Below, piece by piece: positions 1,624-12,420 of a stretch of 32,000 nt of DNA (the stretch's first letter is position 1; each line of letters opens with the position of its first letter). Position numbers and translations under genes: made by a program. Below the pieces are notes generated by a model that was given only the letters and a program-made list of their open reading frames with translations, made no database searches and was not told the DNA's origin. This DNA comes from Candidatus Pacearchaeota archaeon (lineage in GTDB: Archaea; Nanobdellota; Nanobdellia; Pacearchaeales; UBA284): assembly GCA_026016245.1 (NCBI GenBank), contig CP061211.1, positions 420,001 through 452,000 on the forward strand, given 5' to 3'.

Positions 1624-3936
1624 CTAAACCAAAGTTTCTTGTTTTTCAGTCTCAATTATTGCTTCTCCATACTGGCCATCAAAACCTGGTTTTACTTTAA
1701 TTTTCTCCCCTCTATTTTTCAAGATAGCAGATGCAATTTTATCTGTTGTTATCTTTCTTAAATCTTCTACTGGAACATTTAGAAGAATATTATATTCGTC
1801 TTTGAATTTATCTATCAATTTATTATATTCAGCCCATACTTTTTTAGTTGACATTGCTGAATTAAGTAGCTTAGAGAGAATTTCATGTAAAGGTAATAAG
1901 GTATAGAACTTTACAGCTTCTTTTGGTTTGTATCCTTTTTTTCTGTCTGCCAGCTCTTCAACTCTATGTTCTACACCTATTGTTAATGGCTTCTTACATA
2001 TTGGACAGATATTATGGTATTTTTCTATAGCCTCTTTTGGTGAGCATGAAAAGTTGCAAGTCCTGTGTCCATCAAAATGATATTTACCATAAGCAGGATT
2101 AACTTCAATTGTTCCTTTATAACCTTCTTTTGTTCTTATTGCTTTGATAATGTTTTTATATGTTAGTTTAGGCAGATCAAAAATAGTTGCTTCTCTTCCT
2201 AAACGCCATGGCCAGAATGAGTGTAGGTCTGAAAAAGAGGTTATTGTGTATTTATCTAATATACTAAGTCGCCAATTCATTTCAGGGTCAGAATTTCCAC
2301 ACCAAACAGGGATCCCATTCCTTCTAATATAAATGATATGATTTGGAACCTCAAGACAGTACACAAAACCATCATAATTAACCCACGATTCTTTATAGTT
2401 ATATTTTTTGACAATTGAAGGTAGAACTGTATGGGTATTCTTCCTGATAAAGTAGATCACCCACGAATCTTCTGATTGTCTATAGCTTTTTAGTTTAGCA
2501 TGTGGTAACGAAGTAATTGGCGTGCCTTTTTTAAGATGTAATTTATAATATGCAGAAATACCCATTTTCAAAGCAATTTCTTGAAGATCATCTCGTAGCC
2601 TAGTAGAAATAGTAGTTGCAGATAAACCTTTTCTATTTCTTCCATAAATATGACCATCCCCTTTAATGTAATACTCAAAAAAGATTTCTAAAAGTTCTTT
2701 TGATAAAGATTTTATTTCTAGAGGGATAAATTTATTATAGCTTTTTCCAAATTGCTTAAGATAATGAAATAATTGATAATCTCTTACCCTAATCACATTA
2801 TTTCCCTGGTAAATACTATAACCAAAGCTTTCGAGAATTTTCTTCATTTCAAAAAGTAAATCTGTATTTGAGTTAGCTAAACAAACATTATAATCCCCAT
2901 TTTTGCCTTTAGTCGTCCATCCCTCTGCCATCCAAAATCCAAAGAATTTTAACCAAGGTTTTATGGGAATGTGCTTTTCTTTTTTAACTCGAAATCCTTT
3001 GTAATGACGACTTCCATGTTTTATTTTAACAGTTGGTAATGTGAAATATTTTATATTTTTGCCAATCCAGATACCATCTTTTTTAAATCTCTTTGATTTG
3101 TTGAATAAAAATTCTGCTTCTTTAAGAAAAAAATTAGGGGGTTTACGAAAATCACACTTGCTAATCAAAAGTTTATGATTAGGAGTAACTAATAAATCTA
3201 CCCTTTTAGTTTTTAATCTATACATCTTTCCTTTATGTTTATAAGTAAATATTTTTCGTGGTTTCTGAAATTCAATTTTATTATTTTTAATATTTAATGT
3301 GCAAATTTTGTTAGTTTTTTTTACTTGAGGAAATTTTTTCCAACCATTATTAGTTAAAACTTCTGTTTTTTCATCATAACAAGACAGACCTGTTTCAAGA
3401 GCATATATATGTTTGACTTGATCTTCAAATGCCTCTTCAAAACTATCAAAACCTGATTTACTGCCTAAGACGCCAAACCAGGGTGTCCAAATATGTGCTG
3501 GTATAACTTCTATATCTTGTGATATGGATTTTAATGCTTCTGTAACTTCAGGTAAAGGCATTCCAAAAATAGGTCTGCCATCATAGTCTAAACGGCCTTT
3601 TTTTCCTAGATAACTATTGATTTGTTCTACTATTTCAAGATTTGGGGCTAAGATGACGATATGAACTCTCCTTCCTTTATTTCCTTGAGTGTACATTAAT
3701 GAAATTTCTGTTTGCAGAATGAAAGGAAAGCCATTTGCTGTTTTTAAGATTCCTGTATCTTGCTCTTCTAAATATTGCTTTATCTCCTGAAGCCATAAAG
3801 GATGTGTAAAATCACTTGTTCCTAGCAAGTTAACACCTTTAATTTTTGCCCATTTTTCTAGGTTGGGAATACTAAGCTCATGACTTGTTGCTCTTGAGAA
3901 TCTGCTATGTATGTGTAAATCAGCTATAGTTTGCAT
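1624..3936 (-). CDS. endoQ: Endonuclease Q (PHP-domain, TIGR00375-like) carrying an in-frame intein
   Basis: The N-extein carries ADLHIHSRFSRATS (PHP motif I), IVILAPN, PAHIWTPWFG and ALETGLS. The C-extein carries SDPEMNWRLS, SFSDLHS and a Cys-rich zinc finger, CNFSC..(12)..CPICKK..GVEHRVEELADR. The exteins sum to 407 aa, the size expected for EndoQ. Confidence 0.8.
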   Translation of the reverse strand: MQTIADLHIHSRFSRATSHELSIPNLEKWAKIKGVNLLGTSDFTHPLWLQEIKQYLEEQDTGILKTANGFPFILQTEISLMYTQGNKGRRVHIVILAPNLEIVEQINSYLGKKGRLDYDGRPIFGMPLPEVTEALKSISQDIEVIPAHIWTPWFGVLGSKSGFDSFEEAFEDQVKHIYALETGLSCYDEKTEVLTNNGWKKFPQVKKTNKICTLNIKNNKIEFQKPRKIFTYKHKGKMYRLKTKRVDLLVTPNHKLLISKCDFRKPPNFFLKEAEFLFNKSKRFKKDGIWIGKNIKYFTLPTVKIKHGSRHYKGFRVKKEKHIPIKPWLKFFGFWMAEGWTTKGKNGDYNVCLANSNTDLLFEMKKILESFGYSIYQGNNVIRVRDYQLFHYLKQFGKSYNKFIPLEIKSLSKELLEIFFEYYIKGDGHIYGRNRKGLSATTISTRLRDDLQEIALKMGISAYYKLHLKKGTPITSLPHAKLKSYRQSEDSWVIYFIRKNTHTVLPSIVKKYNYKESWVNYDGFVYCLEVPNHIIYIRRNGIPVWCGNSDPEMNWRLSILDKYTITSFSDLHSFWPWRLGREATIFDLPKLTYKNIIKAIRTKEGYKGTIEVNPAYGKYHFDGHRTCNFSCSPKEAIEKYHNICPICKKPLTIGVEHRVEELADRKKGYKPKEAVKFYTLLPLHEILSKLLNSAMSTKKVWAEYNKLIDKFKDEYNILLNVPVEDLRKITTDKIASAILKNRGEKIKVKPGFDGQYGEAIIETEKQETLV
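2293..3381 (-). mobile_element. Intein with LAGLIDADG homing-endonuclease domain (residues 186-548 of the EndoQ ORF, 363 aa)
   Basis: Block A is Cys1 (CYDEKTEVLTNNGW). Block B is LLVTPNHKLL (TxxH). The two LAGLIDADG motifs are LKFFGFWMAEGWT and LEIFFEYYIKGDGHI. Blocks F/G are DGFVYCLEVPNHIIYIRRNGIPVWCGN, followed by a +1 Ser. I checked the boundary codons in the sequence: aca at 3379-3381 encodes Cys, att at 2293-2295 encodes Asn, and aga at 2290-2292 encodes the +1 Ser. Confidence 0.8.
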
Positions 3937-6670: not shown

Positions 6671-7250
6671 CTAAATATAAAGAATACCATTTAGCAAAAT
6701 TTCTGCCTGTAGCATTAGCTTCTAATGAAGTTTTAGTCCACATAACATATTCTTCATGTGTCATTTCTGCAAGAGTTTTATCATAATTTTCTGGGATAAA
6801 TATTAAGCCTATTTCAGACCATAAATGTTCTTGCATTTTCCCTCTTATCTTCTCAGCAAGTATTCCTTTAATATGACTAATAAAATATTTCGGATTTTTA
6901 AGACTCTTATCAATATATGCAAGGCATTCTCTAAATTCACAATTTCTTTTTTTATTTTCAACTAATTTTAAGATTCCTTCAAGACCTATTGTCTCTAGAG
7001 CAAAGTTAGCAAAAGCCTTTGGAAAACCATTTAATGAAGGAATATAAAAACCAGCATCTAAAGCTACAACTGGTTTCTTAAGTTCATTATAGGCAAATAA
7101 TACTTTTTCTTTTGCAATCTTAACAACATCATCAGACCTAGGTTCATGAATCTCTAATGGGGCTTGAAGAACTTTTACATTATATTTTTCTAATTCTCTC
7201 TGCAAAGATTGTATTTTGCCTTGATTTTTAGTAGCATAGAATAATTCCAT
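6657..7250 (-). CDS. HAM1/RdgB-family non-canonical purine NTP pyrophosphatase (ITPase)-like protein
   Basis: MELFYATKNQGKIQSL matches the ATgN.gK motif. VVALDAGFYIPSLNGFPKAF matches the DDSGL.vdaLnG.PG region. IFIPENYDKTLAEMTHEEY matches F.p.gy.kTfAEm..eeK. Confidence 0.6.
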   Translation of the reverse strand: MELFYATKNQGKIQSLQRELEKYNVKVLQAPLEIHEPRSDDVVKIAKEKVLFAYNELKKPVVALDAGFYIPSLNGFPKAFANFALETIGLEGILKLVENKKRNCEFRECLAYIDKSLKNPKYFISHIKGILAEKIRGKMQEHLWSEIGLIFIPENYDKTLAEMTHEEYVMWTKTSLEANATGRNFAKWYSLYLENPA

Positions 7251-7348
7251 TTCAATGTCAGCTTTTTATTGTTAATAAAGACTATTATAGTAAAATATTA
7301 GAACACAAAAATATATAAATTCCTGTACATTTTAATAAAAAAGTTAAA

Positions 7349-8994: not shown

Positions 8995-9023
8995 GCTCGA
9001 GGGCTCGCTTAGGTTGGGTTTTT
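8995..9023 (+). repeat. Dispersed repeat copy C (GCTCGAGGGCTCGCTTAGGTTGGGTTTTT)
   Basis: The 19-mer is identical to copy A, and the extension is shared with copy B. It overlaps the last 4 codons and the stop of the minus-strand ORF ending at 9009. Confidence 0.8.
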
Positions 9024-9721
9024 GGATATTTTATCTACAAGTTTGATCAATTTTGGAAGATTGCTTATGAATAATTTTTTATCCCAATCACTTTTCTTGA
9101 GTTTTAGTAGCAAATTCACTAATTCTTTATCTTTTTTATTAGAATTTTTTATTAGGGTCTTATATGAGAAGATATGAGATCCTTTATTGATTTGATTAAT
9201 TAAATAGCAAACCCTAAATAAATTTTTACATACATACTCTATCCAAGAGAAGTCTCCCTTACTTATTTTAGGCATATGAAAACTATAAAATTTTTTAAGC
9301 ATGTTTCTTATTGCTTCTTCATAGGTCCATTCTTTTGTAGGAAAATCTGACCTAGAAAATTTTCTTCCACATATATGCTTCCAGTATCTAAAGTCTAGAA
9401 GAAGTAAATTTGGATGGATAAGTCTGGCGAGTCTGCTCCTAGGCTTTTTTCCTTCGAGTTCTTCTAGGAATAAATAATTTATTTTGAAATGTTTTAATCC
9501 AGATTTTTCTTCTGATAAAAAATTCTTTATTTTTTCCCTATATTAGAACCAAAATTATTTTTTACAATAGCTATAGAATCTATATCGCTCTTACCCAAAT
9601 TAAAATCTTCACTTAAAATAGATCCCCATAAATAGATAGATATTATTCCTTTCCCCTCATATCTCAAGAAGATATTCTTGAGAGCTGAGTAAGTCTTTGC
9701 TAATATTTCTTCCCTATTCAT
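9009..9721 (-). pseudogene. AadA/ANT-like nucleotidyltransferase (NTase domain plus DUF4111-like helical domain), frameshifted in an A6 run
   Basis: The N-terminal ORF (9527..9721) has IYLWGSILSEDFNLGKSDIDSIAIV, the GS..(n)..D.D pol-beta NTase motif. It stops right after an A6 run (minus strand ggg aaa aaa taa; T6 at 9530-9535 on the plus strand). The -1 frame then reads without stops from that point to 9009: EKIKNFLSEEKSGLKHFKINYLFLEELEGKKPRSRLARLIHPN...MLKKFYSF...VCKNLFRVCYLINQINKGSHIFSYKTL...ISKNPT*. This joins the second track ORF (9009..9302). One extra A restores an ORF of about 237 aa. Confidence 0.7.
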
Positions 9722-9804: not shown

Positions 9805-10548
9805 TTAAATTTTTATTGACTTTGCTTTTTTCCAAAATTGTTCAAAAATAAATCTTTGTGTTAAATTCACAGCTTTATCATGAATAATTATACCAATAAA
9901 GTTTTCTTTCTGAAAAGACAAAATAGCAACTTTATCACTATAAATATGTGTCCAGGTTGGTAATTCTTTGAGTTCTTCCAGAATTCTAACTTGAGTTAAT
10001 CTTCTATAAGCTGGTTTTTTCCACATTTTGATGTCTAAAATACTTGAATCAGAAATTCCTCTTAGTTTAATTTTTTTAGAAATTCTTTTCTTTCTAAAAT
10101 CTATTCCTTGATACTGTAATAGTTTATTAATAATAGTAAAAGAACCATAAGCTAAAATTTCTTGTTTTTCTTTTAAAACATCTAAATGAACTACATCAAT
10201 TCCCTTTTTGCCTTCGTAAAATTCTACTAGGGGTTTCTTTCCAATTATTTTTTGTTTTTCTTTAAGTTTGGGCAAAATTTGTTGCAATTTTTTTTCTTTT
10301 TCCTTAAGTTGCTCCAATAATATTTTAGGATCAGAAGCATAAAACTGCTTAATATGTTCTATGATTGTGTAACCAACAATGCCTTTTTTAAGCAATGCTT
10401 CAAGAATATCATAAAGACTTGTTCTGTTGATTCCTGTAATTTCAGCAAGTCTTAAAATAGGACTTTGACCTAGTTCAAGCAACCTAAGATAAACTTTGAT
10501 TTCCTTGTCATTTAAACCTACTTCCTTTAGTATATCTTCTTCTGTCAT
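9805..10548 (-). CDS. TrmB-family transcriptional regulator
   Basis: The N-terminal winged HTH LKEVGLNDKEIKVYLRLLELGQSPILRLAEITGINRTSLYDILEALLKKGIV is typical of TrmB. It is followed by a coiled coil and a C-terminal domain of the expected size. Confidence 0.8.
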   Translation of the reverse strand: MTEEDILKEVGLNDKEIKVYLRLLELGQSPILRLAEITGINRTSLYDILEALLKKGIVGYTIIEHIKQFYASDPKILLEQLKEKEKKLQQILPKLKEKQKIIGKKPLVEFYEGKKGIDVVHLDVLKEKQEILAYGSFTIINKLLQYQGIDFRKKRISKKIKLRGISDSSILDIKMWKKPAYRRLTQVRILEELKELPTWTHIYSDKVAILSFQKENFIGIIIHDKAVNLTQRFIFEQFWKKAKSIKI

Positions 10549-10584
10549 GTTTTTTCTTGTACTTTCGTATTTTTAAATCTTTTC

Positions 10585-10597
10585 GTGGATTTTCCAC
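10585..10597. promoter_or_regulatory. Perfect palindrome GTGGA-TTT-TCCAC in a divergent promoter region
   Basis: It lies between the divergent starts at 10548 (TrmB) and 10638 (AlaRS-like). It is flanked by TATA-like tracts (tatttttaaatc and cataaatttaaatc). It is a candidate operator. Confidence 0.25.
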
Positions 10598-10637
10598 AGC
10601 ATAAATTTAAATCAATTTGTTACTGAAAAATAATAAA

Positions 10638-11810
10638 ATGAGAATGAAAGAATTAAGGCAAATAATAGAAAAATTTCCTAAGAGGAAAGGGACTCAAAAC
10701 ATAAATCAAGATCCGATAGTTAATGAAGGTTATCCTGGAACTTTTAATTCAAGTTACTCAGAAGGATATTGGTCAGAATTATTTGGACCAAATTTAGAGA
10801 TATATGATTTAATTGTACATAAAATACAACCCTGCATTAGATTTAGTGATTTCATTAATAAAATATTGAAAGATACTTCTAAAATTCATTTATCTTGCTT
10901 CGATATGGGTGACATAAGTGGGGCAGTTAATTTTACATCAAGTAAAAACCATAAGAGAATAAGCAGAGAAAATGTAAATGCAATGTTGACTTTCTTAACA
11001 AATTTAGGTTTCAAGCTTCTAGATATTTATATTACTTGTTTTCCTAGAGGAAATTTAAATGAAATAAGTAAACTCAATTATGGAAGAGAATCATTTAATT
11101 TTTATATAAAACCAGACCCAAATATAGATGAATTTAAAAAATTTTTACCTAAAGAAAATATTATATTAACAAAAAAAGATACTTTTTTATGTATAGATCT
11201 TGAAGGATTTAATAAAACACTTAATGGGTACAGAAATGAGATTTTATTTAAAACAAATAAAGGGATGATAGATATTGGAACTATGGAAAATCTTTATCTT
11301 ATGCCACAAAAAGAAAATAATAAAATTAGAGGTTACATTAATAAGGGTTTATTTTCAATTGCAGGAATTGGCCTTGAAAGAGTTTTACTTTGTAAAAATA
11401 ATTTTAATCATATTATAGAGTGTGACCATATTTATCCTTTATATCAACAAATATTAAAAGACTTTAAGAAAAAAGACGAACATGGGGCATTTATTTATAC
11501 AGAATCATTAAGAAGCTTGCATAGGGTATTTAGTGAAAATAACTACAGAAATTTATCTAAGAATAGGAAAAGAAAAGTTAAAAAATTTTTACAGCAGATT
11601 TATCATATTTCAAAAGAAAATATTAAAAATTATTTAGAAATTAATGCACAATTGCAGGATTATTATCCTGAATTAAAAAAAGGAATAGAGAATACTAATA
11701 ATGAAATCATTGGATATTTTGAAAGGAGAAAATCTTCTTTTTTAGAAAGAAAATTAGAAAGAAAAAATATTAGAAATCTTGGTACCAAACAAAAGGCTGT
11801 TCAAGGCTGA
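10638..11810 (+). CDS. Stand-alone alanyl-tRNA synthetase catalytic-core (class IIc) paralog
   Basis: IQPCIRFSDF...KIHLSCFDMGDISG aligns to the AlaRS motif sQPCIR.dD....gr.HlT.FEMlg..sF. IDIGTMENLYLM aligns to lEvatlvFm. FSIAGIGLERVLL aligns to vDTGyGLERf.w. The protein is only about 390 aa. I recognise no tRNA-recognition, editing or C-Ala domain, though about 110 aa downstream of the GLER motif are unassigned. I prefer the ATG at 10638 to the TTG at 10617. Confidence 0.55.
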   Translation: MRMKELRQIIEKFPKRKGTQNINQDPIVNEGYPGTFNSSYSEGYWSELFGPNLEIYDLIVHKIQPCIRFSDFINKILKDTSKIHLSCFDMGDISGAVNFTSSKNHKRISRENVNAMLTFLTNLGFKLLDIYITCFPRGNLNEISKLNYGRESFNFYIKPDPNIDEFKKFLPKENIILTKKDTFLCIDLEGFNKTLNGYRNEILFKTNKGMIDIGTMENLYLMPQKENNKIRGYINKGLFSIAGIGLERVLLCKNNFNHIIECDHIYPLYQQILKDFKKKDEHGAFIYTESLRSLHRVFSENNYRNLSKNRKRKVKKFLQQIYHISKENIKNYLEINAQLQDYYPELKKGIENTNNEIIGYFERRKSSFLERKLERKNIRNLGTKQKAVQG

Positions 11811-12420
11811 GGCCTGGGCATGCTGTATTTATCCAGCACTGGATTTTTGGGAAATTTTCCAGCTGATTTATATCCAGAGTGTCGAATGTGAAGATGTAAG
11901 CTTTCTTTTTTTGTTTTTCTAGTTTCTTTTTTAATTCCATGGCTTGCTTTAATTTGTTTTGTCCAGGCTTTATTGAGACAAGAATACCATAAGTTTGCGC
12001 TGACAGGAATTTAAGCTTTTGGCCTTTTTTCCTTGCCTTTGCTTTGTTTATATCTTCTGTTTTTAGTTTTGAGAATTGATTTGTAAGGGGATTATAGATA
12101 TAGATTGGTTTGTTTGTTGCTAATGCGAGCTGTAAAGGGTGAAATTTTCCTGATCCTATATAGAGAAAGGCTTGAACTTTATCTTGTATTGATATAGCTG
12201 CTTTTACATTGCAACCTAGGATTTGGCCTTTTTCCAGAAACTTGGATTTTCCTATTATTACTTTCTTCTTGTGTTTTTCTAGAAAAGCTTTGATTTTTTC
12301 TAAGCTATTTGTGTGTTGGATTGTTGTTATTAATCCTATGGTTTCTGGTAGCTTGTTTGGTTTTATATTTTTAAGAGAACAAGAAGCTGTATATTTAGAA
12401 GGTAAGAATAGAATTTTCAT
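11770..12420 (-). CDS. dph2: Diphthamide synthase Dph2-like protein (2-(3-amino-3-carboxypropyl)histidine synthase), short form
   Basis: GQILGCN, FLYIGSGKFHPLQLALAT, YGILVSIKPGQ and CWINTACPG match domains 2 and 3 of archaeal Dph2. At 216 aa it is much shorter than the roughly 340 aa typical of the family. Confidence 0.7.
   Translation of the reverse strand: MKILFLPSKYTASCSLKNIKPNKLPETIGLITTIQHTNSLEKIKAFLEKHKKKVIIGKSKFLEKGQILGCNVKAAISIQDKVQAFLYIGSGKFHPLQLALATNKPIYIYNPLTNQFSKLKTEDINKAKARKKGQKLKFLSAQTYGILVSIKPGQNKLKQAMELKKKLEKQKKKAYIFTFDTLDINQLENFPKIQCWINTACPGLSLEQPFVWYQDF

Follow-up and report, generated by a model that had tools for sequence, protein, structure and literature searches.

We analysed a window of 32,000 nucleotides from a Candidatus Pacearchaeota archaeon (GenBank assembly GCA_026016245.1, contig CP061211.1, positions 420,001 to 452,000), and coordinates given without a further label are positions in this window. 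The window is AT-rich (27-35% GC), includes an archaeal ribosomal-protein cluster and belongs to a host genome consisting of a single contig of 710,724 bp. Its subject is the gene of a 390-residue protein, P0001, which is homologous to the catalytic core of alanyl-tRNA synthetase (AlaRS) and is encoded divergently from a TrmB-like regulator. The gene and the parts of its product are located as follows.

10638-11810, forward strand: AlaRS-core paralog P0001, 390 residues (open reading frame call, family profile, hhalign, AlphaFold2, Foldseek)
10638-11384, forward strand: class II catalytic (aminoacylation) domain, residues 1-249 (hhalign and MAFFT alignment to E. coli AlaRS ~3-245; strand pattern of the model)
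10827-10841, forward strand: motif 2 core QPCIR, residues 64-68 (conservation table, alignment)
11226-11240, forward strand: family-specific segment G-Y-R-N-E, residues 197-201, which replaces G-P-C-x-E of GPCGPCxE in AlaRS
11271-11288, forward strand: active-site strand D-I-G-T-M-E, residues 212-217 (MAFFT seed alignment, conservation table)
11358-11381, forward strand: motif 3 region I-A-G-I-G-L-E-R, residues 241-248 (conservation tables, hhalign, MAFFT)
11385-11753, forward strand: helical domain, residues 250-372 (hidden Markov model (HMM) alignment to AlaRS 215-356; hhalign; conservation)

An initial annotation of this DNA had described an open reading frame of about 390 residues with the class IIc motifs of AlaRS in the correct order, and all motifs cited there were located in P0001, namely QPCIR at residues 64-68 with D71, HLSCFDM at 84-90, IDIGTMENLYLM at 211-222 and GIGLER at 243-248, the latter directly preceded by Ile241-Ala242. 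An alternative TTG start at 10617 would add seven residues upstream of Met1, and homologues of P0001 begin where its Met1/Met3 sit. The protein is composed of the aminoacylation domain and the first half of the helical tRNA-recognition domain, and has neither an editing domain nor a C-Ala domain. The same annotation had let the sequence end about 110 residues after GLER and had recognised no tRNA-recognition domain; 142 residues actually follow, and this tail is the first half of that domain, aligned to E. coli AlaRS ~250-365. The reported absence of editing and C-Ala domains was borne out, as P0001 ends at residue 390 and the only tRNA_SAD match of the genome lies in its housekeeping AlaRS.

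As a single sequence, P0001 gave no meaningful match in Pfam (even at E ≤ 1), NCBIfam or the PDB (phmmer), was not matched in a genome-wide PF01411 scan at E ≤ 10, and aligned by BLASTP with the AlaRS of its own genome at just E 0.008 over the N-terminal 136 residues. An alignment of 59 family members (A1) was the basis of the profile, the conservation counts and the AlphaFold2 model. The profile led to AlaRS catalytic fragments in the PDB (E 8e-15), PF01411 was matched individually by 20 of the 59 members (best 8e-13), and an hhalign comparison of the family with aligned AlaRS N-termini from E. coli and DPANN resulted in a probability of 99.8% (E 4e-29, 340 columns). The AlphaFold2 model of P0001 (pLDDT 93.5, pTM 0.90) was compared with the PDB by Foldseek, where the best 19 matches were all AlaRS entries, nearly all of them catalytic fragments (E 4e-16 to 1e-13, TM 0.67-0.70); these fragments are of the bacterial or eukaryotic type, with archaeal-type AlaRS and the GlyRS alpha-subunit scoring much lower. 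Structural neighbours in the ESM Atlas were likewise AlaRS clusters, the nearest clusters being labelled 'hypothetical protein'. Since profile, hhalign, predicted fold and Foldseek all agree, homology of the P0001 family to the AlaRS catalytic core is established. The HMM comparison with tRNA-synt_2c that had been proposed as a check on class IIc membership hence comes out in favour of it, and the description of P0001 as a stand-alone, highly diverged AlaRS-core paralog stands, as profile and fold searches both group it with AlaRS.

A complete AlaRS of 709 residues with catalytic, helical and tRNA_SAD editing domains is encoded in the same genome (C1:294860-296989), and a genome-wide tRNA_SAD scan did not find a stand-alone AlaRS beta-half. 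A split AlaRS of the Nanoarchaeum equitans type, which the initial annotation had offered as an option, is excluded by the intact AlaRS elsewhere and the lack of an orphan beta-half, and the suggested search for a full-length enzyme or a separate half therefore favours a paralog. Replacement of a missing synthetase such as GlyRS was also rejected, as five class IIb synthetase-type genes are all present and the paralog occurs in just 8 of 401 near-complete genomes of the phylum. The P0001 gene is a rare accessory gene. Among 41 close relatives, four have the paralog and the remainder show just a housekeeping 'small-AlaRS' of ~590 residues, a form described for Candidate Phyla Radiation (CPR) bacteria and DPANN archaea (bioRxiv 10.1101/2023.05.29.542759).

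The housekeeping AlaRS of the host (P0004, L002:802-2931) shows a peculiarity of its own, an in-frame insertion of ~130 residues (residues ~215-345) that interrupts the catalytic domain after the E-I-W-N strand and ahead of motif 3. The inserted segment bears the signature of HAD-like hydrolases (PF13419), with a score of 29.9 bits that exceeds the cut-off. Judged by length, the insertion is apparently absent from the same-genus AlaRS (L008, 584 residues) and from other relatives (~590 residues).

We then compared the active site of the family with that of AlaRS. hhalign and a MAFFT seed merge concur on the mapping of E. coli R69, W170, E183, D235 and motif 3; for the E209-N212-V214 strand, where hhalign opens a gap, we used the MAFFT alignment, which is ungapped there, together with the strands seen in the model. 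Arg68 (E. coli Arg69, motif 2) and the adenine-stacking Phe88 of the F-[ED]-M element occur in 59 of 59 members, Asp71, downstream of the motif 2 core, is invariant, Glu201 (E. coli Glu183) is found in 57 of 59, and position 212 (E. coli Glu209) is Asp in P0001 and Asp or Glu across the family. Motif 3 is similarly strict, with Gly245 and Arg248 in all 59 members and Glu247 in 58. The segment corresponding to GPCGPC of AlaRS reads x-W-G-Y-R-N in the family, with Gly197 and Arg199 invariant and Tyr198 and Glu201 conserved to at least 90%. The residues around alanine gave a different picture: Trp170 of AlaRS is Leu184 in 54 of 59 members, Asn212 is Thr215 in 58, Val214 is Glu217 in 53, and Asp235 is Ile241 in P0001 and I, L, V or G family-wide. 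The Asp-to-Ile exchange before GxGLER noticed at the outset is therefore real and family-wide, the position being hydrophobic in the family. The alignments thus show the ATP half of the active site as conserved and the alanine half as rebuilt in a conserved manner.

In AlaRS, Arg69 holds the carboxyl group and Asp235 fixes the alpha-amino group of alanine, while D-amino acids are kept out by the Val and the Trp, both of which are invariant across all domains of life (PMC10123102); Asp235 has been termed essential, and the Val lies 3.4 Å from the methyl group of alanine (PMC12143591). A carboxylate beside C-beta together with the lost anchor of the alpha-amine argues for a different substrate or a different binding pose. 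The earlier suspicion that alanine may not be activated can be extended to three positions, as Asp235, Trp170 and Val214 are all replaced, and activation of alanine by P0001 is improbable. As to the predicted non-alanine substrate, one may speculate about a D- or beta-amino acid, or about a hydroxy acid; lactate, for instance, can be activated by bacterial AlaRS (PMC12143591).

These replacements bear on the possibility that P0001 is a genuine alanine-charging enzyme, whether as a mini-AlaRS, as a spare copy or as the alpha-half of a split enzyme. Active mini-AlaRS without editing and C-Ala domains do exist (PMC10036535), and the HAD-like insertion might in principle impair the housekeeping AlaRS. 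Nevertheless, all three residues, essential or invariant elsewhere, are replaced throughout the family, a complete AlaRS accompanies the paralog and no beta-half was found in the genome, and the paralog is missing from most close relatives whose AlaRS has no HAD insertion, so that we consider alanine charging hardly credible. The rebuilt pocket would also fit an acyl-adenylate ligase that modifies a protein or small molecule, with a substrate such as lactate or beta-alanine. Precedents for ligases with a non-RNA acceptor are EpmA/PoxA, which lysylates EF-P, BirA, LplA and the lactyl-transferase side activity of AlaRS. Loss of Asp235 and the new Glu by C-beta suit a substrate without a canonical alpha-amine, lactate is a possible substrate of bacterial AlaRS (PMC12143591), and the length of P0001 equals that of the adenylation-only module of AlaRS. 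The conserved helical acceptor-stem domain and the tRNA-like genes abutting some members (both below) point to RNA instead, and we regard such a ligase as quite unlikely.

In AlaRS, the homologous counterpart of the helical domain (250-372) is the first half of the tRNA-recognition domain. E289, R292, H295, D300, L306, R310, N336 and a P344-E-L motif are conserved, and the AlaRS pattern D/E-x-x-R...D...R is kept as E289, R292, D300 and R310. The net charge of the domain (median +4) was uninformative, and the tail of P0001 (residues 373-390) is unconserved. P0001 stops before the Y-D-T-Y-G-F-P segment that bears E. coli Asp400, and the position of E. coli Asn303 is occupied by Ser307. For the mini-AlaRS of Tupanvirus it has been described that the canonical readers of G3:U70 can be dispensable (PMC10036535).

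A search among 1.8 billion cluster representatives (clusters at 50% identity) gave 113 relatives, most of them stand-alone proteins of 370-390 residues, and none of the 113 clusters had a name or annotation in the databases queried; similarly, no paper describing the P0001 family was found in the literature. A pattern scan of one genome per species, built from 13 closer members, detected 19 loci. Their hosts are DPANN archaea (Pacearchaeota, Woesearchaeota, Nanoarchaeota, Iainarchaeum), CPR bacteria (Saccharibacteria, Paceibacterota, Peribacteria, Vogelbacteria, Berkelbacteria), one member of the Pseudobdellovibrionaceae and one doubtful member of the Deltaproteobacteria (L029), which was left out of all conclusions on account of its extremely long branch and doubtful open reading frame call. 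In a maximum-likelihood tree, a long supported branch divides the family from AlaRS, and the members from archaea and bacteria are intermixed: one sequence of Saccharibacteria forms a pair with one of Nanoarchaeota (SH-aLRT 99) and a Woesearchaeota sequence is nested among Peribacteria and Vogelbacteria (SH-aLRT 99). This interleaving (SH-aLRT at least 99) indicates repeated transfer between the domains. A phage origin is unsupported, as no relative of the family was detected in the viral contigs of IMG/VR. The defence models of PADLOC matched neither the enzyme nor the fused forms described below, the helix-turn-helix (HTH) of the regulator giving just weak CARF/CasR-type noise.

At locus L004 (G036), the place of the divergent TrmB-like gene is taken by a divergent tyrosine (phage-type) integrase (L004:2549-3397; PF00589, E 3e-42). 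An integrase is also among the neighbours at one further locus, which hints at carriage by mobile elements. At L043 (G158), the AlaRS-like gene (L043:1480-2653) lies in two overlapping frames with an in-frame TGA and is probably decaying, with its TrmB-like neighbour kept.

At several loci, a tRNA gene on the same strand starts 0-60 nt past the stop codon of the enzyme gene or overlaps it (L006 with a tRNA-Leu, L025, L026, L028, L030 and L034, as called by ARAGORN and Rfam). The tRNA-like gene of L027 begins 1 nt after the enzyme stop codon, and L035 has a 95-nt tRNA-like element just upstream of the enzyme gene. The tRNA-like genes are located as follows.

L025:7138-7217: tRNA-like gene
L026:2756-2833: tRNA-like gene
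L027:7147-7230: tRNA-like gene
L028:7145-7229 and 7232-7307: tRNA-like gene, two copies
L030:3141-3233 and 3252-3324: tRNA-like genes
L035:5862-5956: tRNA-like element

The enzymes of L025, L026, L027, L028 and L030 form one subclade (SH-aLRT 95), and their RNAs are mutually related and atypical. They start with xGGGGTG-TAGCyCA, their D-loop is without GG, and the T-loop reads GGTGCRAnTCC with a G where U55 is universal (a TGC T-loop). The acceptor stem usually contains a G-U wobble, most often at 5:68, the stems on the anticodon side have 6-9 bp with short loops, and a CCA end is encoded in three of the genes (both L028 copies and the first L030 element). Rfam tRNA scores of 34-56 bits were obtained for these RNAs, compared to 57-71 bits for ordinary tRNAs of the same loci. 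A covariance model was built from six tRNA-like RNAs and run on 244 kb of loci and on five complete source genomes; scores of 72-87 bits were reached solely by the enzyme-abutting elements, whereas ordinary tRNAs stayed at or below 47 bits, and one extra match (59.5 bits) was found on another contig of the L027 genome. Several of the tRNA-like genes were missed or mislabelled by ARAGORN. A T-loop change of the same kind (TGC or TGT for TTC) is reported for the staphylococcal tRNAGly used in peptidoglycan synthesis, which binds EF-Tu poorly (PMC7826273). From their sequences, the abutting RNAs are the best evidence that a tRNA-type acceptor may still be used and that the product would not be meant for ordinary translation.

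Two other explanations of these adjacent genes were considered. Use as att sites by mobile islands is less likely, as the RNA genes are atypical, full-length, unique in their genomes and placed 0-60 nt 3' of the enzyme gene; two loci do have an integrase nearby. A tRNA-Ile(TAT) gene beside the enzyme gene at L021, L030 and L034 had raised the question of a dedicated tRNA-Ile(UAU) synthetase. This was rejected for the archaeal lineage because at least 19 relatives without the paralog share a conserved tRNA-Ile(UAU) with an intron; from the same genomes, AUA is apparently read by a UAU tRNA in this lineage. The intron-containing tRNA-Ile with UAU anticodon lies at G000:C1:272305-272420 (reverse strand) in the host genome and at L053-L075 in relatives, and another gene whose 3' end is identical (C1:81799-81948) carries the ARAGORN label tRNA-Ser(GGA).

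A tRNA-dependent reaction does not have to be a charging reaction. AcmF from Streptomyces sp. 80H647 (ascamycin) is a truncated AlaRS-like, Ala-tRNA-dependent transferase in a clade apart from AlaRS (PMC12945691), and P0001 could in the same way be a scaffold that passes an aminoacyl group from a charged tRNA to a small molecule or another acceptor without ATP. The truncated architecture and the mutated alanine-site residues of AcmF are matched here (PMC12945691), and the tRNA-like genes of the bacterial loci would suit such a transferase equally well. AcmF is, however, reported to be without most ATP-binding residues, while the motif 2 Arg, the Phe and motif 3 are invariant or nearly so in our family, the neighbours are heterogeneous and no biosynthetic-cluster context was seen. 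In addition, the hosts of the family have minimal secondary metabolism. A transferase of the AcmF type is thus unlikely, and because the family keeps the ATP residues that AcmF lost, we rank an adenylate-forming ligase above it.

The other partner of the enzyme is the regulator, and the relevant features of the window are the following.

9805-10548, reverse strand: TrmBL2-like regulator, 247 residues (PF01978, E 1e-12, 48 bits against a cut-off of 25.6)
10581-10599, unstranded: candidate palindromic operator TTCGTGGATTTTCCACA in the 89-bp divergent spacer

The divergent TrmB-family neighbour named in the initial annotation is confirmed by this PF01978 match, and the pairing is conserved and accompanied by gene fusions. 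A profile of the regulator aligned in full length with TrmBL2 (5BOX, E 2e-7) and with residues 7-191 of the 342 of TrmB (3QPH, E 2e-14), reflecting a winged HTH followed by the first fold of the TrmB effector domain, without the C-terminal sugar-binding barrel. When the neighbours at 23 loci were clustered, the sole recurrent family was a protein of ~250 residues encoded divergently upstream, and a Pfam tally of neighbours gave the TrmB HTH in 7 of 80 with nothing else above 3. Six further loci from the phylum survey all have a TrmB-like gene, one of them (L041) being a duplicate of L031. With L041 counted as L031, a divergent TrmB-like gene is present at 11 of 27 distinct loci (the window, L027, L028, L031, L032, L035, L038, L039, L040, L042 and L043), which span archaea, Saccharibacteria and a Bdellovibrio relative. 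L028 and L035 have a second TrmB-like copy downstream of the enzyme gene. The 0.71-Mb host genome encodes seven full-length TrmBL2-like paralogs (250-260 residues) and two HTH-only matches, and such paralogs make up a large share of its regulators.

Some enzymes are longer than usual (P0005, 522 residues; P0018, 533; P0060, 527; the Berkelbacteria open reading frame of L037, 543; and the fragments P0055 and P0108) and carry a C-terminal domain homologous to residues ~105-245 of the TrmB-like protein (HMM E 1e-24 to 1e-28). These fused forms are without the HTH, and at L017 and L037, the two fusion loci with visible flanks, a separate regulator gene is absent. One fused protein was predicted to fold as a single unit (pLDDT 93, pTM 0.82). 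Because of this Rosetta-stone pattern, a functional link between the enzyme and the TrmB-like protein is very likely. A complex prediction of the enzyme with the TrmB-like C-domain gave an ipSAE of 0.00, which, as controls were not run, is evidence neither way. A conserved lysine of the C-domain as acylation target is unsupported, since K153 varies in the fused forms, and this also speaks against the ligase with a non-RNA acceptor discussed above.

The palindrome that had been claimed for the shared promoter region was found as GTGGA-TTT-TCCAC at 10585-10597, with TATA-like A/T boxes on either side. The same element, TTTCGTGGGTTTTCCACA, occurs in the equivalent spacer of L031 and L038, where the extended element TTTCGTGG[A/G]TTTTCCACA is conserved, and the enzymes of these two loci belong to other subclades than P0001 (28% identity for L031). 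A second type of palindrome, TGTAAAA-T-TTTTACA, lies at the same place in L032, L039 and L040, and a third type, GTGGTTAAATTnACCAC, in L042 and L043. Palindromes that differ at a fixed position are what would be expected for co-evolving pairs of operator and repressor, and binding by the TrmB-like protein may be inferred from this arrangement. At L040, the TrmB-like and AlaRS-like genes lie ~550 bp apart (L040:945-1500) with an extra open frame in the spacer, and the operator-like palindrome adjoins the TrmB-like gene.

This conserved pairing raises the possibility that the AlaRS-like protein is a non- or semi-catalytic ligand sensor which works with the TrmB-like regulator and whose output is transcriptional control. 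HisZ with HisG, the adenylate co-repressor of BirA and the alanine-dependent autorepression by E. coli AlaRS are models for such a role. The divergent arrangement with conserved operators and the fusion of the regulator C-domain to the enzyme agree with a sensor, and E. coli alaS is annotated both as ligase and as DNA-binding repressor. The fused forms, however, are without an HTH and hence would not bind DNA by themselves, a pure sensor would not be expected to keep its catalytic Arg residues strictly invariant, a TrmB-like neighbour is missing at about half of the loci, and a comparison with the six unassociated TrmBL2-like paralogs of the genome revealed no association-specific residues in the regulators. 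We therefore consider a pure sensor improbable.

From the conserved ATP site, the replaced alanine residues, the helical domain, the abutting RNAs and the regulator, our preferred interpretation, to which we assign a probability of roughly 50%, is that P0001 may be an ATP-dependent ligase which loads a non-alanine substrate onto a tRNA-type acceptor under TrmB-like control. It would be the descendant of a bacterial-type AlaRS, reduced to the adenylate-forming core and the first half of the acceptor-helix-binding domain, with a re-specified pocket but still catalytically competent. ATP would be bound through the retained class II residues, as their invariance suggests, and a carboxylate other than a canonically posed L-alanine would be activated, as expected from the residue replacements. 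The activated group would then be moved to the 3' end of a tRNA-type acceptor, a step suggested by the retained helical domain and by the tRNA-like gene abutting the enzyme gene in the bacterial subclade, and the product would serve a non-ribosomal or specialised use and not general translation. Expression of the AlaRS-like gene would be controlled by the divergent TrmBL2-like repressor through binding to the intergenic palindrome. As the C-domain of this repressor is fused to the enzyme elsewhere, it may sense a ligand linked to the enzyme or contact the enzyme itself. The whole would form a rare accessory module that appears to be exchanged by horizontal transfer between DPANN archaea, CPR bacteria and predatory bacteria. 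A bolder and more specific version, in which the AlaRS-derived enzyme charges its own dedicated tRNA of non-ribosomal type with an amino acid other than L-alanine and the TrmBL2-like protein is a ligand-responsive switch, is possible but tentative, and we hold it to be doubtful in full. The family would then be a synthetase lineage not recognised before, and its tRNA would be the one with a TGC T-loop, without G18G19 and with a long anticodon stem whose gene immediately follows that of the enzyme in CPR bacteria.

Several observations weigh against the proposed ligase. E. coli AlaRS fragments of such length are adenylate-competent but are not known to charge tRNA, and this behaviour together with the absence of the Asp400-bearing half makes binding of a tRNA-type acceptor uncertain. 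No tRNA lies within 1.8 kb of the P0001 gene, and the genome of the window is without an atypical tRNA: the covariance model scored at most 25.7 bits there, and the T- and D-loops are canonical in each of its 44 called tRNAs. The link to tRNA therefore comes from a bacterial subclade to which P0001 does not belong. About half of the loci have neither a TrmB-like gene nor a tRNA neighbour, and with seven TrmBL2-like paralogs in the host, adjacency in a single genome is weak evidence. Finally, the mapping of N212 and V214, and with it the predicted exchanges at these positions, draws on sequence alignment and secondary structure.

Regardless of the acceptor, the P0001 family is a neofunctionalised aminoacyl-tRNA synthetase (aaRS) paralog and more structured than a lone diverged gene would be. 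AlaRS counts among the synthetases with the most conserved architecture, and AcmF was the only functionally distinct paralog of its catalytic core that we came across in the literature. Across the whole P0001 family, the chemistry of ATP is kept, while systematic replacement has affected the three residues on which recognition of L-alanine depends. Its retention in the archaea and bacteria with the smallest genomes is noteworthy, as these shed nearly all non-essential genes. In the bolder version given above, the enzyme would supply episymbiotic and predatory prokaryotes with a donor of aminoacyl groups, either for special decoding or for a non-ribosomal process. If the enzyme charges the tRNA-like RNA, the two would be a new natural synthetase-tRNA pair, with bearing on the evolution of the genetic code, on orthogonal pairs for synthetic biology and on the use of aminoacyl-tRNA outside translation in episymbionts. 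If the RNA is not charged, the family would still be an unambiguous example of neofunctionalisation of an aaRS, with a partner open to testing.

Near the P0001 gene, further open reading frames were observed. A Dph2-like frame for diphthamide synthesis (11770-12420, reverse strand) encodes just 216 residues and covers positions 80-273 of the 302 of the Pfam model; it is convergent with the AlaRS-like gene, and the 3' ends overlap by 41 nt. Between the TrmB-like gene and a DUF1284 gene lie two short frames (9527-9721 and 9009-9302, both on the reverse strand). The one of 64 residues has a weak likeness to the N-terminus of Pol-beta-type nucleotidyltransferases (E 0.004) and may be a remnant.

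Among known systems, the AlaRS catalytic fragments (E. coli 1-441, 3HXU; A. aeolicus, 1RIQ; human, 4XEM) are closest to P0001, with the same fold and domain order (TM 0.67-0.70) and the shared elements Q-x-C-[IV]-R of motif 2, F-[ED]-M and G-x-G-[LV]-E-R of motif 3. Identity is merely 13-17%, however, W170 is replaced by Leu, N212 by Thr, V214 by Glu and D235 by a hydrophobic residue, and P0001 is without the second half of the tRNA-recognition domain and without an equivalent of Asp400. AcmF, which was compared by its description, shares with the family the reduction to aminoacylation and tRNA-recognition domains and the altered alanine-site residues. It differs in the reported loss of most ATP-binding residues and in its nucleoside-antibiotic cluster, whereas the family keeps the ATP site, has no such cluster and resides in DPANN and CPR hosts. 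The mini-AlaRS of Tupanvirus and the small-AlaRS of CPR and DPANN are, like P0001, natural forms without C-terminal domains. Both truly charge alanine, the small-AlaRS being the sole AlaRS of its genome and the mini-AlaRS being able to replace AlaRS; in contrast, P0001 coexists with a housekeeping enzyme and is without the alanine-binding residues.

Recruitment of aaRS cores for a new acceptor or for regulation has precedents in GluQ-RS/YadB, EpmA/PoxA, HisZ, the SerRS-like carrier-protein ligases and BirA, the last of which couples a class II-like adenylating core to the function of a winged-HTH repressor. To our knowledge, none of these recruited paralogs derives from AlaRS, and we know of none that pairs with a TrmB-family regulator or with a dedicated tRNA-like gene with a TGC T-loop. 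TrmB and TrmBL2 of Thermococcales share the winged HTH (PF01978) with our regulator, which aligns with TrmBL2 in full length; unlike TrmB, it is without a sugar-binding barrel, has a locus-specific aaRS-like partner and has a C-domain that is fused to this enzyme elsewhere. On the side of the RNA, the non-proteogenic staphylococcal tRNAGly has TGC for TTC in the T-loop and a D-loop without GG, as in the tRNA-like genes (PMC7826273). It is charged by the normal GlyRS, whereas the tRNA-like genes stand next to the gene of a separate enzyme derived from AlaRS, and their anticodon stems have 6-9 bp. In its arrangement, a synthetase-like gene beside an unusual tRNA gene, as seen in the bacterial loci, recalls pylS/pylT, the genes of PylRS and tRNAPyl.

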